A program made the position numbers and the translations under genes. A model generated the notes under the pieces. It was not told where the DNA came from and did no database searches. It saw only the letters and a list, made by a program, of their open reading frames with translations. A DNA stretch of 40,579 nt from Candidatus Micrarchaeota archaeon (GTDB taxonomy: Archaea > Micrarchaeota > Micrarchaeia > Norongarragalinales > Norongarragalinaceae), in the NCBI GenBank assembly GCA_016207165.1, contig JACQQD010000006.1, forward strand, positions 1-40,579, read 5' to 3'. The stretch's first letter is position 1; each line of letters opens with the position of its first letter. Below, piece by piece: positions 4,697 to 10,587 of the stretch.

Positions 4697-5038
4697 ATGA
4701 AGAAATCCAAGTCCGGTAAGATGGCGGAAGCCATGGCGTGCGAAGATTGCCAGCGTGATCCCTGTTGTTGTGAGAACGAATGCGAGTGCGGGCATGGTGG
4801 AGAGTCGTGTTGTGATTCTTGTGGGACGTGCGGTTCGGGTTGCGGGCCCATGCATGCGGGATGGGGTTTTTGGGAGTTCAAACTCAAGTTTTTGGCGGTT
4901 GGGTTGATTGGGTTGGGTGTATTGTGGTATTTGCGGAATGCGGGCGTGATTCCGGGTGACTTGTTTTGGCCTGTTGTGTTCGTTTTGGGCGGCTTGGCGT
5001 TGTTGGCCAAGTCTTACATGATGCGCCGTAGCTGGTGA
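4697..5038 (+). CDS. Small membrane protein with Cys-rich N-terminus and two TM helices
   Basis: CEDC..CCC..CEC..CCDSCGTC..C followed by LIGLGVLWYL..FWPVVFVLGGL (LiaF/DUF5668-like TM pair). Confidence 0.7.
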   Translation: MKKSKSGKMAEAMACEDCQRDPCCCENECECGHGGESCCDSCGTCGSGCGPMHAGWGFWEFKLKFLAVGLIGLGVLWYLRNAGVIPGDLFWPVVFVLGGLALLAKSYMMRRSW

Positions 5039-6366: not shown

Positions 6367-6436
6367 GAAAATGACCTCTAAAAGTCGGGATTCTATCGTG
6401 GAAAGTCGGCTTTATAAATAATGGGCTTTGGTGGTA

Positions 6437-7804
6437 ATGCGGATGATTGGTCAAGTCGTGTACAAGAGTTTTTCGACGAATCCGGACTACTTTGTGCTGT
6501 GTGAGAAAGGAGTGGTGCGGGTCGTCCAGCGCGAGACGACGTCGGACCACGAAATCGGGGAGTTCGTTCAACTGCATGGCGCCTTGAAGAGAAACGTATT
6601 GTATGCGTCGTCCGTGGAATTGCTTTCCGATGAAAAAGAGCGGGAGGCGCAAAAAGAGGCGGCCGTTTGGACGGAGGCGCTTTTGATTGGAAGGGATTTT
6701 GACGCCTTGGTGGAGGCCCCGGCGCTGGAAAAAATGAAGCCCGTTTTCAGGCAGGCGGCCGAAGCGCTTGAGCGGGCCGTCATTGGCATGCAGCCCATTT
6801 TGGTGCGGTTTGACGAGGATGCCGACGGCATCACTTCGGCGTTGTACTTGCAGTCGTTGGTGGAGCACTACATTGAAAAAAGCGGTTTGCCTTACCCGCA
6901 TTCATTTTTCAAGGCGTTTCAGAGCGAAGCCCCCATTTTCGAAAAAAAGCACCTCCAGCACCTGGAAGCGGTGGCCTCGGATTTTGCGCGCGAGCCGCTG
7001 GTGGTTCTGTTGGATCACGGCGGCAACGAGGAGAGTTTTCCGGCGCTTAAGGCGGCCAAGGCGTTGGGGTGGGATTTGATGTTGGTGGACCACCACCCGC
7101 CTTTCCAGGATTCCCTGGCTTTGTTTGACGTGGCGGTGCACCCGGCGCAGCACGGCGGCTCGTCGGCGGAAAATACCGGGCTTTTGATGTACCACGTGGC
7201 CTCGGCGGTGTTTGCCGCCCCCGCGTCTTGGGCGCATTTTGCCATGCAGGGCGACCGAAGCCCTTACGCCCTAAAAAAGTTCTTCAAAGAACCTATTGTC
7301 TTGGATTACGCGTCGCTTCAAAACTGGCCGCTCAAAAAGTACCGTGCGTTGTTGTCGGACAAAAACCAAGTCGACGTGCTTTACCAGCGGTGCCTTCGCT
7401 TGAGAGAGGAGTCCGTCCGGGAGGCCTTCAAGCGACGGAACGTTCAGCTTTTTGGTTCCGTGAACGTGCAGTGGCTGGACATTTCGTACCTGAAATCCGA
7501 TTACCCGCCCAAAGGCGGAGTGGTTCAGGGGCTTCACGAGCACGTGGAGAACGAAGGGCCGCTGGTCACCGTCGGTTTTGACAAGGAACGCGTGATTTTT
7601 CGGGCCAACGCGGGCGCGGAAGAGGCGGGGTTTAAGGCGAATGCCTGGATTTCGGATTTGAAAAAGAGGCCTGGCATTGTTGCGTCGGGCGGCGGACACG
7701 CGCGGGCGGCGTCCATGCGCCTCAAGCCCGGCAAGCTGAACGCGGCGCGGAGCTGGCTGGAAGAGCGGTTCAAAAAAGTTTTCGGTCCCGGAAGTCAAAG
7801 CTAG
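6437..7804 (+). CDS. RecJ-like DHH/DHHA1 phosphoesterase with N-terminal OB-like region
   Basis: DEDADGITS, LLDHG, VDHH and GGGHARAAS motifs; TTTATAAA upstream. Confidence 0.88.
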   Translation: MRMIGQVVYKSFSTNPDYFVLCEKGVVRVVQRETTSDHEIGEFVQLHGALKRNVLYASSVELLSDEKEREAQKEAAVWTEALLIGRDFDALVEAPALEKMKPVFRQAAEALERAVIGMQPILVRFDEDADGITSALYLQSLVEHYIEKSGLPYPHSFFKAFQSEAPIFEKKHLQHLEAVASDFAREPLVVLLDHGGNEESFPALKAAKALGWDLMLVDHHPPFQDSLALFDVAVHPAQHGGSSAENTGLLMYHVASAVFAAPASWAHFAMQGDRSPYALKKFFKEPIVLDYASLQNWPLKKYRALLSDKNQVDVLYQRCLRLREESVREAFKRRNVQLFGSVNVQWLDISYLKSDYPPKGGVVQGLHEHVENEGPLVTVGFDKERVIFRANAGAEEAGFKANAWISDLKKRPGIVASGGGHARAASMRLKPGKLNAARSWLEERFKKVFGPGSQS

Positions 7805-7832: not shown

Positions 7833-8552
7833 TTATTCTTTTTCGAATCCAGGTAACGTTCGGAGGTTGACGATGTCTTCCCGAAAGTGTCGTCCAAGCA
7901 TGCCTTGGGTGGCGTTGCGGATTAATCCGATGGCTTCGTCGTGGCTTTTTGCAGGTATGGAAATGCGGATTAAGTGTTGGTCCATCGCAGGCATTTGTTC
8001 GAAGGGATCGTTTGGCTCGCGTTCTTCGCCTTCTCCTGCAATTCTTACGACTCGTATACCTCCTGGTCGAACTGGAAATTCTTTGACGTGCGTTACGGCG
8101 TCTACGTCGAAGCCAAAAATCTCTTGCAATCTTTTCAAAGCTGTACCAAGCTCCGAATGGTCTTTGAACATTTTTGCTTCAAGTCCAATCAGGACGATGC
8201 CGGAGGAGAGTGCGGGGTATATGGGCACGGCTCCACGCTCCACGTGTCCAAGAAGTTTGGAAATGTCGCCTTCGTTGAGCGCTTCCCGGATTTCTTCGTG
8301 TCTGTGTGGGTTTAGCAACGCGAATTTCAGTAGCGCAAATCTTCCGTCCGACAGGGCGTTCTCTATTCCGCCGTGAGGTCTTGCGTAGATTAAATAGGTG
8401 GGGCCTGTTGGGTTTACGCCCTCGCGCGGAAATCCAAGGGTGAAATCATTTAACTCGACTTTTCCGCCGACTGATTTGATTTTTTTTTCGAATTCAGGCG
8501 GCAATTTTTGTCTATGAACAAAGATGAAACTCTTTTGACTTTCCAAGAACAT
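7833..8552 (-). CDS. Hypothetical protein, lower GC than flanks
   Basis: 239-aa ORF with its own TTAAAA box; visibly AT-richer than neighbours; no family recognised. Confidence 0.6.
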   Translation of the reverse strand: MFLESQKSFIFVHRQKLPPEFEKKIKSVGGKVELNDFTLGFPREGVNPTGPTYLIYARPHGGIENALSDGRFALLKFALLNPHRHEEIREALNEGDISKLLGHVERGAVPIYPALSSGIVLIGLEAKMFKDHSELGTALKRLQEIFGFDVDAVTHVKEFPVRPGGIRVVRIAGEGEEREPNDPFEQMPAMDQHLIRISIPAKSHDEAIGLIRNATQGMLGRHFREDIVNLRTLPGFEKE

Positions 8553-8693
8553 GTTTAACTTCGTTCTTTTGAGGCTTTTTTTAAGTTTCTTTTATCGATT
8601 GGCGTTTCATATTTTGTTCGTCAAGGTCACCGGCCAGCTGGCCTCAAGGCTATTAATGCCGTTTTTTCCCATTTTCTTGCAGGTGAAAAAACC

Positions 8694-9128
8694 GTGTTGT
8701 CGAAGTTCTCCATTTACAAGCCGAACAAAGCCGGTCGGGGGTCGGCGGTTCAATTCGATTTCAACCCGGACAAGCCGTGCGTCTTTTTGGAGGGCGCGCC
8801 GCAGTCTGGGGAAAAGCAGTTTGACTGGGGCCAAAAAGTCGTCGTCAAGCTCTCCATCATGGAGTTGGCGAAGTTGTTGACCGTTCTGGAGGGTCCGGCC
8901 AAGACCGTCAAATTGTTCCACGACTCCACGAAGAGTCCGACGGCGGAGGGCTCGACCTTGAAGAACACGGTGGTGGAAGTCACCAAAGGCGACTTCGGCT
9001 TTTTCCTCAAGGCGTCCGCGCAAAGCGCCACCGGAGTCAAAAGCGTGGCCATTGGCGTTGGAGACGAGGAAGCCAAGGCGTTAAGCGTTCTGTTCCGCCG
9101 CGCCATTGCCCGCGTCTACGGCTGGTAA
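8694..9128 (+). CDS. Whirly-like ssDNA-binding protein
   Basis: FSIYK, FDWGQKVVVKLSIMEL, LFHD, GFFLKAS and terminal VYGW match plant Whirly motifs in order; AGGTGA RBS at 8681. Confidence 0.72.
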   Translation: MLSKFSIYKPNKAGRGSAVQFDFNPDKPCVFLEGAPQSGEKQFDWGQKVVVKLSIMELAKLLTVLEGPAKTVKLFHDSTKSPTAEGSTLKNTVVEVTKGDFGFFLKASAQSATGVKSVAIGVGDEEAKALSVLFRRAIARVYGW

Positions 9129-9132
9129 ACTT

Positions 9133-10587
9133 CTACTTGCCGGCGGCCGTGGCTTCGGAGTGGCTTTCCGCGTCGCGGAAGCCTCCTTCCGCGCGGAAGA
9201 ACATGAACGCGGCCAGCACCAACAAGACGATGGCCGCCAGGATGAGGCCGTCCGCCAGCGACCCGGTGAACAAGCCGGTGGCGATTCCGCTTTGTCCAAT
9301 GGCTGGAGCGTTGTGCGTGGCCACGGGTTGGCCGTCAACCAACACCGTGAGGACGGGGTTGGCCGCGTCGGCGGTGGTGCGCGTGACGGTCACCTTGATT
9401 TCAGCTTGGCCGTGGGGTGGCGCCGTTACGGTGGTGGAGACGTACGTCCATCCCTCTGGAAGGTTGGAGACCTGGACGGTGACGTTGCGAATGGGCGTGT
9501 CCTGGTTGTTTTGCACCAGGACGGTCCACGCCAATCCATCGGTTGACGTTTCAGTGATTTGCGTGACGATGGTGGATTGGCAGGAAGAAACATCGGCGAT
9601 GACCCAGGCGGTGCCTTCGCTGAATTGGCTTTTCGCGTTGACAGCCACCACGTTCTCGTTTAAGCGCAACGACGACGGGTCCAGCACCAAATTCAGGGTG
9701 CGCTCTTCGCCTGGCGCTAATGTCGCGGAGGCCGGGGACAAGGCGTCGCCGGTGATCTGGAAGGTTTGCACGCGGGTGCCGGTGTTGCGCACTTGAACGG
9801 GAAGCGCGCTTAATTCGCATTGGCGGACCGACGCGCGTTCCGGCACGCGGAGAACGGCGGCGTCATCGTGCTGTGCTTGGATGCAGGCTTGGGCTTGGCC
9901 CAGGACGATGCCTTGGCGAAGCACTTGGATGGTCACGTAGTGCGTACCCGCGGAGAGGGCCTGGATGTAGGCGACGGTGGCGGCCAACTCGTTTTGTTGC
10001 AGGGTCGTGGTGCCGTCTTCAAGAACGGTGCGCGTCGCCGTCTCGTCCTCGACGGCGTGCAAGTCCACGGTGACGGCGGCTCCGGTGTTGTGGATGCGGA
10101 TGCGCTTGGCAAACGTTTGGCCCACGGTGACGGGGGTGCAGGATTCGCCGGCATCCACTTGCATGGCGTAATGCGTGGCGTCAAACTCGTGGGAGAAGTA
10201 AAGCGATTGCGGCCTTTCCAATGCCGCGTCAAGGGGTTGGACGTGAATGTATTTTTCGCAGTTTTTTCGCGGTTCGTGGGTTAGTTGCAGGGTTTTAGTC
10301 TGTGTATTGGTTCCATTGGAGGCCTTGATTCGGATGGTTTCCGTGCCCACCAGGCAGTCGGGGGCCAAAAGTTTGATGAGGGCGTGGTCGCCGTATTGCG
10401 TGACTTGGGCGTTGGTGTACTCTGATTCTACGGAGAACGCGGCGTTTTCCGAGGAGTAGGCGTAGACTTGCGCGACGGTGCCCTGCGTGTGCACGGCGTC
10501 GTACGAGACGTCCATCGAAAAGCCTTGCACGCCCACGATGCTCAGCAGCAAGAGGGCGCCGGCGATTGGAAAGGAAAACTTACCCAT
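9133..10587 (-). CDS. Secreted, C-terminally anchored surface protein with Ig-like/CARDB-like domains
   Basis: Signal peptide, VQVRNTG / IHNTG / LPEGW beta-sandwich motifs, Thr-rich, C-terminal ATGLFTG plus TM helix. Confidence 0.78.
   Translation of the reverse strand: MGKFSFPIAGALLLLSIVGVQGFSMDVSYDAVHTQGTVAQVYAYSSENAAFSVESEYTNAQVTQYGDHALIKLLAPDCLVGTETIRIKASNGTNTQTKTLQLTHEPRKNCEKYIHVQPLDAALERPQSLYFSHEFDATHYAMQVDAGESCTPVTVGQTFAKRIRIHNTGAAVTVDLHAVEDETATRTVLEDGTTTLQQNELAATVAYIQALSAGTHYVTIQVLRQGIVLGQAQACIQAQHDDAAVLRVPERASVRQCELSALPVQVRNTGTRVQTFQITGDALSPASATLAPGEERTLNLVLDPSSLRLNENVVAVNAKSQFSEGTAWVIADVSSCQSTIVTQITETSTDGLAWTVLVQNNQDTPIRNVTVQVSNLPEGWTYVSTTVTAPPHGQAEIKVTVTRTTADAANPVLTVLVDGQPVATHNAPAIGQSGIATGLFTGSLADGLILAAIVLLVLAAFMFFRAEGGFRDAESHSEATAAGK

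Follow-up and report, generated by a model that had tools for sequence, protein, structure and literature searches.

Recent literature still describes Whirly proteins as plant-specific (PMC9070903, PMC11359715) or counts them among the parts of the plastid nucleoid that are of eukaryotic type (PMC4758235), and another text says in passing that the Whirly/Pur-alpha family spans the three domains (PMC13392464). Could an archaeon encode a genuine Whirly protein, and if so, what would it do there? The question is raised by a window of 40,579 nucleotides, the whole stretch of contig JACQQD010000006.1 from a Candidatus Micrarchaeota archaeon that was analyzed here. A sequence-only reading of this window had reported an open reading frame (ORF) at 8694–9128 on the forward strand and proposed that its 144-residue product is an archaeal Whirly-like protein that binds single-stranded DNA (ssDNA), possibly in partnership with a nearby RecJ-like exonuclease. 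We find that the window protein is a true member of the Whirly domain family, because its profile score, predicted fold and conserved residues all place it there.

A Whirly domain protein in an archaeon

The Pfam Whirly profile PF08536 matched the window protein at 55.3 bits, against a gathering cut-off of 23 (E value of 8.3e-15), with residues 29–131 aligned to profile positions 32–134 of 136. A phmmer search of all PDB sequences matched six plant Whirly sequences, led by AtWHY1 (4koo, E value of 1.7e-9), AtWHY3 (4koq, 4.7e-9) and potato PBF-2 p24 (1l3a, 8.7e-8), with three WHY2 sequences at E values of 5e-4 to 9e-4; the sole non-Whirly row was a flavin reductase at an E value of 0.51. Searching the PDB with a profile built from the family also matched six plant Whirly sequences, at E values of 9e-11 to 4e-10. 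None of the NCBIfam models matched the window protein, nor did the OB-fold Pfam models (SSB, Ssb-like_OB and tRNA_anti-codon).

We predicted the structure of the monomer using AlphaFold2 (AF2) and an alignment of 133 family sequences, comprised of the window protein and 132 search matches, from which truncated matches were excluded by eye. The model has a mean pLDDT of 95.8 and a pTM of 0.88 and is folded from residue 5 to residue 141, with nothing outside the domain. The first modeled repeat contains strands at residues 5–9, 17–24, 29–39 and 49–53 followed by a helix at 55–65, and the second contains strands at 71–77, 89–99, 102–111 and 114–122 followed by a helix at 124–141, giving a predicted β4-α-β4-α topology. 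A Whirly-type fold of two β4-α repeats, and not an OB fold, is predicted with high confidence.

We compared the model to known structures. Foldseek searches of the PDB placed plant WHY3, PBF-2, WHY1 and WHY2 at the top (E values of 1.6e-8 to 2.4e-7, TM of 0.74–0.80), with the trypanosome MRP1/MRP2 proteins at a TM of 0.68–0.71 and Pur-alpha at 0.33–0.40. VIA-align superimposed the model onto AtWHY1 (4koo_A) with a Z score of 18.7 (135 residues, RMSD of 2.0 Å) and onto the other plant Whirlies with Z scores of 17.5–18.6; overall, the plant Whirlies superimposed over 127–135 residues with an RMSD of 1.7–2.7 Å and identities of 18–28%. The corresponding Z scores were 15.9–16.4 for MRP1/2 and 6.9–8.0 for Pur-alpha. 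Thus, the Whirly/PC4-type fold that had been suggested for this archaeal protein was borne out by the PF08536 match, the PDB sequence search, the AF2 model, Foldseek and VIA-align. MRP1/MRP2 from Trypanosoma brucei share the Whirly-type fold and also form a tetrameric whirligig, according to PMC7549692, but they constitute an RNA-binding heterotetramer and have no sequence match to the window protein. The wider PC4-like superfamily (PC4, Pur-alpha, bacterial YdbC/DUF2128 and the Shedu sPC4/Whirly sensors) has the β4-α repeat in common with the window protein and binds single-stranded nucleic acid, as stated in PMC7549692 and PMC10441436, whereas its structural match is weaker, as seen for Pur-alpha, and its oligomeric arrangements are different.

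Residue conservation follows the same pattern. H76 does not vary across the 133 family sequences, W45 and E126 show a conservation of 90% or more, and these three residues align with matching residues of WHY1, WHY3 and PBF-2. The family-wide FDW (strand 4 region) and FHD motifs and the C-terminal W are all present in the window protein. Among 48 Micrarchaeia copies, basic residues are conserved at K9, K12, K27, K48, K52, K60, K80, K90, K98 and K106 and aromatic residues at Y8, F31, F43, W45, F75, F103 and W144. Colinearity with plant Whirlies over the whole protein had been claimed; the segments APQSGEKQFDW...LSIMEL, KLFHD, GFFLKAS and the C-terminal YGW held, while the pairing of the first strand, FSIYK, did not hold by sequence. 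Single-sequence and profile alignments to plant chains begin only at about residue 29–35, whereas the structural superposition on plant Whirly covers residues 1–144.

The plant KGKAAL motif, correctly read as altered in this protein, is absent, and at this site the archaeal family instead conserves a YKPNK..G.A.QFDFN block. According to PMC9070903, KGKAAL is common to higher plants, and the Whirly-like proteins of green algae and Marchantia lack it, so the motif marks the higher-plant subfamily and not the domain family. The same text describes a C-terminal autoregulatory tail in plants. Neither a tail of this kind nor a transit peptide is found in the ORF and predicted structure of the window protein, which, also missing KGKAAL, is outside the higher-plant WHIRLY subfamily (WHY1/WHY2 type). 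It shares PF08536, the fold and the FDW, FHD and C-terminal GW motifs with the plant Whirlies (AtWHY1/2/3, StWHY2 and PBF-2 p24) and differs from them in its short length, in having YKPNK..G.A.QF in place of KGKAAL, in its archaeal host and gene context, and in the low sequence identity given above.

The ORF itself is real and native in composition. The frame at 8694–9128 on the forward strand was confirmed, with a GTG start at the same position as in its homologues in the family alignment, and encodes a stand-alone, minimal Whirly domain with a pI of 9.49 (family median of 9.12). Its GC content at third codon positions (GC3) is 0.79, compared to 0.72–0.76 in housekeeping neighbors. A chance ORF was considered and rejected; the opposite-strand ORFs at 8607–9023 and 8750–9106 are shadows, because the GC3 of the Whirly frame is like that of the housekeeping genes. 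A Shine-Dalgarno-like GGTGA (8682–8686, forward strand), putatively functional, lies 7 nucleotides ahead of the GTG, and a candidate archaeal TATA box, TATTAAT (8651–8657, forward strand), lies approximately 40 nucleotides ahead of the start codon within a 141-nucleotide divergent intergenic region. A sigma-70 promoter scan upstream of the gene, using a model that is not relevant to archaea, returned no sites.

Automatic annotation had already labeled relatives of this protein. Precomputed PF08536 matches exist in the protein collection, an NCBI record from the same lineage is titled 'Whirly transcription factor [Candidatus Norongarragalina meridionalis]' and JGI names another alike. The paper that describes Candidatus Norongarragalina meridionalis (PMC8561730) has no mention of Whirly. 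Full-text searches found no paper that pairs 'Whirly' with 'Micrarchaeota', and for 'Whirly' with 'DPANN' the only listed match was a Shedu preprint in which the words are unrelated. The window protein is a new and taxonomically unexpected member of a known family, flagged by annotation, for which our literature searches found no study.

Inheritance in Micrarchaeia and relatives beyond

The host is a Micrarchaeota (DPANN) archaeon with a genome of 1.27 Mb in 12 contigs, 90% complete and with a GC content of 0.564, in which the Whirly gene is single-copy. The four sequencing runs listed are all groundwater DNA metagenomes from one study. Named relatives come from Candidatus Micrarchaeota and Micrarchaeia metagenome-assembled genomes (MAGs), one labeled Norongarragalinales and one Diapherotrites, and a profile scan of genome contigs returned four loci, every one titled Micrarchaeota or Micrarchaeia. 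Of the 401 genomes evenly sampled across the phylum, 39 contain the family; these are concentrated in the order of the window and a few other families of its class, and four large Micrarchaeota families gave no match (0/30, 0/94, 0/83 and 0/76). Across the whole order, Whirly is found in 40 of 68 genomes, and in 15 of the 22 with a completeness of 90% or more.

A tree of the 48 Micrarchaeia copies requires 13 changes of genome-family label for 13 families, where the minimum is 12. Shuffling the labels gave a mean of 28 changes, and none of 200 shuffles was as low as 13, which fits vertical descent with losses. In a quick family tree of 186 rows, from which P0194 was excluded because its match was short, a single 72-row clade (SH-aLRT of 99) contains 47 of the 48 copies; our trees include no plant sequence. 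Vertical inheritance within the order, with losses, fits these observations. In three loci from other orders, L032 (2909–3958, reverse strand), L035 (7956–8771, reverse strand) and L059 (7593–8342, forward strand), the longest Whirly ORF has 249–349 residues, and P0020, at 327 residues, is also extended. The Whirly domain is C-terminal in these long ORFs, and the N-terminal extension may be real or may reflect an early in-frame start.

A phmmer search of 1.84 billion cluster representatives returned 316 matches at E values of 0.001 or below, most of 140–190 residues. Whirly domain proteins were present in non-plant eukaryotes, namely Thecamonas trahens, Amoeba proteus and Picozoa (P0067, P0111 and P0114). 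The first strand is archaeal-like in Thecamonas and Amoeba proteus and is a plant-like YKGK in Picozoa. A search seeded with three eukaryotic members yielded four proteins. A protein of 158 residues (P0183) is from a MAG labeled Gloeobacteraceae cyanobacterium, on a contig of 4,844 bases; it may be a binning artifact and, if real, it would bear on a plastid-related origin.

Other relatives are phage-like. The top BFVD match of the window protein is titled 'Whirly transcription factor [uncultured Caudovirales phage]' (E value of 2.1e-6, TM of 0.66, 25% identity). In the quick tree, 35 rows lie beside the Micrarchaeia clade with an SH-aLRT of 91, which is not decisive; among them are the sequence from Picozoa and a group whose first strand is a plant-like YKG. 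We seeded a metagenome scan with seven sequences of the YKG group and obtained 30 loci (L092–L121). The 16 of these 30 phage-like loci that were examined have small genes, nearly all on one strand, and a GC content of 0.26–0.47. Annotation with PHROGs, covering 57 ORFs (of 100 neighbors plus Whirly), and with Pfam, covering 44 ORFs, identified a head-maturation protease in six loci, a few genes upstream of Whirly. RNase H is directly downstream of Whirly in two loci, a Pol A 3'-5' exonuclease is next downstream (0.4–0.5 kb) in two loci, and GIY-YIG and HNH homing endonucleases and an AAA ATPase are also found. These neighbors indicate that the YKG clade is phage-borne and sits among replication genes, a context that supports a DNA-metabolism role of the family and not a link to DHH genes.

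The phage-borne proteins share PF08536 and the stand-alone architecture with the window protein but are larger, at approximately 170–200 residues, form their own clade and lie in unidirectional phage-like arrays. They are characterized by the YKG first strand and an HDPGAKS motif, and in several members strands 2 and 3 are separated by a Cys-rich insertion (CxxC...CxxC). Examples are L093 (4699–5262), L109 (4174–4725) and L112 (5977–6531), and the L093 copy scores 65.8 bits to PF08536.

Gene neighborhood and a proposed role in repair

On balance, with moderate confidence, we favor a role for the window protein in repair, where it would bind ssDNA as an accessory tetramer and work alongside DHH exonucleases. 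By homology, its helices would assemble the protein into a whirligig homotetramer like plant WHY1/2/3, and its gene context suggests that it would serve in DNA repair or recombination as an accessory binder and not as the replicative single-stranded DNA-binding protein (SSB). It would coat ssDNA made or processed by DHH-family exonucleases, the partners being a HAN-like RecJ paralogue in most families and a short NrnA-like DHH protein with an EndoIII-like glycosylase in one. Coated in this way, the ssDNA may be shielded or passed on to RadA-dependent repair. A role of this kind is proposed for plant organelles, in which Whirly suppresses microhomology-mediated rearrangements; the mechanism of the plant family is presented in PMC3245945. 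The basic pI and the conserved Lys and aromatic positions seem supportive of ssDNA binding, and, by analogy with the plant proteins, both ssDNA binding and tetramer formation are plausible for the window protein.

The host genome also encodes OB-fold proteins, in genes separate from Whirly: a 381-residue replication-factor-A-like protein and a 101-residue Ssb-like OB protein (PF21473, 46.2 bits). The bacterial SSB model had no match in this 90%-complete genome. We rejected replacement of RPA by Whirly, as RPA-like and SSB-like genes are both present, and for this reason the description of the protein as a non-OB SSB stands in part: it is not an OB fold, but it would be an additional SSB. The proposed activity is like that of the OB-fold RPA and SSB proteins while the fold differs. 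The precedent for a non-OB SSB in archaea is ThermoDBP, whose likeness to Whirly lies in the proposed ssDNA binding; as reported in PMC4041433, ThermoDBP replaces the classical SSB in some crenarchaea, whereas the host genome keeps its RPA-like and SSB-like proteins alongside Whirly. The genome additionally encodes RadA, a RecJ_archaeal/GAN-type nuclease (391 bits against a cut-off of 360), two histone-fold proteins above cut-off and one Alba.

The gene order in the window is an RNase HII fragment, S8e, TFB, Trm1 (reverse), L35Ae (reverse), a HAN-like DHH gene, an orphan ORF (reverse) and Whirly, followed by a probable surface protein (reverse), TrmB, S3Ae (reverse), S15 (reverse) and a class-I aminoacyl-tRNA synthetase (reverse). 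Trm1, DHH and TrmB were named via Pfam and the remaining genes by reading their translations. The DHH gene (6428–7804, alternative start 6437, forward strand, 458 residues) matches Pfam DHH at 33.5 bits (cut-off of 28.1), which confirms the RecJ-like gene that had been noted at 6437–7804, and has a sub-threshold DHHA1 match (24.9 against 25.9 bits). Its best NCBIfam match is HAN_nuclease, at 93.1 bits against a cut-off of 840. We call it HAN-like because of this score and because only DHH and DHHA1 were detected; HAN is likewise a RecJ-family DHH nuclease but has DnaJ-zinc-finger and S1 domains, according to PMC6158738, and neither was detected in 6428–7804.

The sequence-only reading omitted the 239-residue orphan ORF (7833–8552, reverse strand) that splits the DHH–Whirly pair in the host genome. 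This ORF has a GC content of 0.483 and a GC3 of 0.487, compared to 0.564 for the genome, has no match among the families of Pfam, NCBIfam, PHROGs and PADLOC, and occurs in only one of the 68 genomes of the order, that of the host. It has the look of a recent insertion into what was ancestrally an intact gene pair.

We compared the neighborhood across 47 other Whirly loci, all of which match the family profile built here; 42 of them have at least 1 kb of upstream sequence and five have less. A DHH-family gene lies upstream of Whirly and co-oriented with it in 20 of the 47 loci (20/42 of those with at least 1 kb upstream). Orthologues of the window HAN-like gene (class A) account for 14 loci, and in ten of these the gene abuts Whirly with a gap of 38 nucleotides or less, or an overlap. 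The HAN-like DHH gene is the ancestral upstream neighbor of Whirly in the order. The remaining six DHH loci, all from genome family f2, contain a short, non-orthologous DHH/DHHA1 protein of 322–389 residues that scores 30 bits or less to the HAN-like and GAN-type classes, and the f2 genomes have their HAN-like orthologue on a separate contig. The short protein has weak matches to NrnA-type oligoribonuclease/pAp phosphatase models (23.7–33 bits against a cut-off of 350). Five loci from one f2 genus (L049 6074–8354, L065 6942–9131, L055, L085 and L086) form a tight array of the short DHH gene, a monofunctional/EndoIII-like HhH-GPD glycosylase (NF053634, 142.5 bits, below the cut-off of 400) and Whirly, and RadA is 1–3 kb from Whirly in two of the five (L049 and L065). 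This second, non-orthologous DHH adjacency is the best sign of real coupling, and comes from two genera.

Several observations weigh against the proposed role. In the window, the opposite-strand orphan ORF separates the DHH gene from Whirly, so the two are not one operon and are not co-transcribed there. The class-A adjacency is embedded in a conserved housekeeping block and may thus be a relic of shared gene order with no functional coupling behind it. Of the first 38 loci, 20 have TFB near Whirly (approximately 1–7.5 kb), 15 have S8e, 14 have Trm1, 13 have TrmB and, by BLAST, 12 have the RecJ-like gene. Counted by genus, DHH adjacency is found in 9 of 22 evaluable genera, all of one order, and eight loci from other orders gave no DHH match with the profile built here. 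Nor was a DHH gene found in 142,057 bases of the phage-like loci. The RecJ-like gene is present in 54 of the 68 genomes of the order, in 34 of the 40 that are Whirly-positive and 20 of the 28 that are Whirly-negative, and six Whirly-positive genomes have no match; with this flat co-occurrence table, we rejected an obligate Whirly–RecJ pair. On the protein side, the window protein lacks KGKAAL, a motif implicated in ssDNA binding and 24-mer assembly by work in plants, and its first two strands cannot be aligned with plant proteins at the sequence level. The substrate could also be RNA, because Whirly-fold relatives, MRP1/2 and maize WHY1, bind RNA too (PMC3245945). The suggested partnership with the RecJ-like gene is partly supported: adjacency to a DHH gene recurs with two DHH classes, but in the window the pair is split, the adjacency is seen in one order, and presence and absence show no dependence.

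Three other genes are reported for completeness. In L032 (4986–5885, forward strand) and L035 (11909–12823, forward strand), which are from one genus of another order, a protein of approximately 300 residues with sub-threshold DHHA1 matches (23.8 and 24.3 against 25.9 bits) is encoded on the strand opposite Whirly, at a distance of 1–3 kb, which hints weakly at a third DHH association. In the window, an ORF at 4697–5038 (forward strand, 113 residues) has a Cys-rich N-terminal half, with many CxC/CxxC motifs, followed by hydrophobic, membrane-like segments. The gene at 9133–10587 (reverse strand, 484 residues) encodes a protein that begins with a signal-like sequence, carries a hydrophobic segment at its C-terminus and gave only weak Ig-/fibronectin-like Pfam hints; its product is probably a surface protein, and it is the downstream neighbor of Whirly in 10 of 38 related loci.

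Alternative roles and significance

The alternative that survives best, although we regard it as unlikely, is that the protein mainly binds RNA and acts in RNA turnover or processing and not in DNA repair. The guide-RNA-binding MRP1/MRP2 proteins are its second-best structural relatives and plant WHY1 binds RNA as well (PMC3245945), the f2 upstream gene has its weak resemblance to an oligoribonuclease/pAp phosphatase, and the surrounding block contains tRNA and ribosome genes (Trm1, S8e, L35Ae, S3Ae and S15). However, sequence searches match only the plant ssDNA-binding Whirlies and not MRP1/2, the f2 array contains a DNA glycosylase with RadA nearby, and the phage-like clade adjoins RNase H and DNA-polymerase exonuclease genes. 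The main neighbor is of the RecJ family, and HAN itself is a 3'-5' exonuclease that probably acts in DNA repair, according to PMC6158738.

We consider it quite unlikely that the protein is a PC4-like transcription cofactor that stabilizes melted promoter DNA together with TFB, as the database name 'Whirly transcription factor' would fit. TFB (1880–2785 in the window) is upstream on the same strand in the 20 of 38 loci counted above and is the nearest upstream gene of the block in L033, L052, L057 and L068 (approximately 1–1.7 kb), 13 of the 38 have a TrmB-family regulator downstream, and the fold belongs to the PC4-like superfamily (PMC7549692). Yet TFB comes close in loci that lack Trm1, L35Ae and DHH between the two, which looks like the collapse of one syntenic block, and there is no TFB near Whirly in f2 or in the eight loci of other orders. 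The absence of Whirly from 28 of the 68 genomes of the order is also unexpected for a general transcription factor.

We give a similarly slight probability to an architectural role in the nucleoid, in which the protein would be abundant and would compact the chromosome as WHIRLY1 is reported to do in barley and maize. The protein is small and basic, and the plant family forms higher-order assemblies, as PMC3245945 and PMC9070903 describe, but the genome already has its histone-fold proteins and Alba, and neither the second lysine of KGKAAL, involved in 24-mer assembly in plants, nor the PRAPP compaction motif of monocot WHIRLY1 is seen. A core part in chromatin would also be at odds with the patchy distribution in the order.

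Recent acquisition from a phage or a defense island, for example as an sPC4/Whirly-type sensor comparable to the domains at the N-termini of Shedu nucleases, is largely refuted and very improbable: Whirly-fold proteins are known in phages, a whole clade of the family is in phage-like contigs, and Shedu and Menshen employ sPC4/Whirly-fold sensor domains (PMC10441436 and PMC12065111), but the window gene has a native composition, lies in a housekeeping block, follows the genome taxonomy in its tree and is not fused to a nuclease, PADLOC and PHROGs have no match for Whirly or the neighbors scanned (both for the orphan ORF, PADLOC for the DHH protein), tblastn of the window protein and P0073 against 50,697 phage records found no match, and the viral contigs contain no relative of its clade.

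Accessory ssDNA binding in repair remains our preferred reading, and in that case Whirly would be the second non-OB ssDNA binder in archaea after ThermoDBP. It leads to the hypothesis that small-genome archaea handle resected DNA via Whirly alongside DHH exonucleases. As a minimal archaeal Whirly of 144 residues, the window protein also provides a simple system for studying the fold without transit peptides or regulatory tails.

For the family as a whole, a further reading is possible, if doubtful: Whirly may be an old prokaryotic and viral accessory ssDNA-binding module and not a plant invention, with a vertical Micrarchaeia lineage that forms a repair module with DHH exonucleases (and, in one genus, a DNA glycosylase) and a phage lineage in replication modules that is the closest relative, in the prokaryotic world, of the eukaryotic organellar Whirlies. 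Phage-type RNA polymerase and the Twinkle helicase are phage-derived proteins of organelle DNA maintenance, and if this reading were true, the plant Whirlies would be phage-derived organelle DNA-maintenance proteins as well. Taken with the phage-borne clade and the members from non-plant eukaryotes, the archaeal Whirly reopens the question of how the plant organellar family originated.

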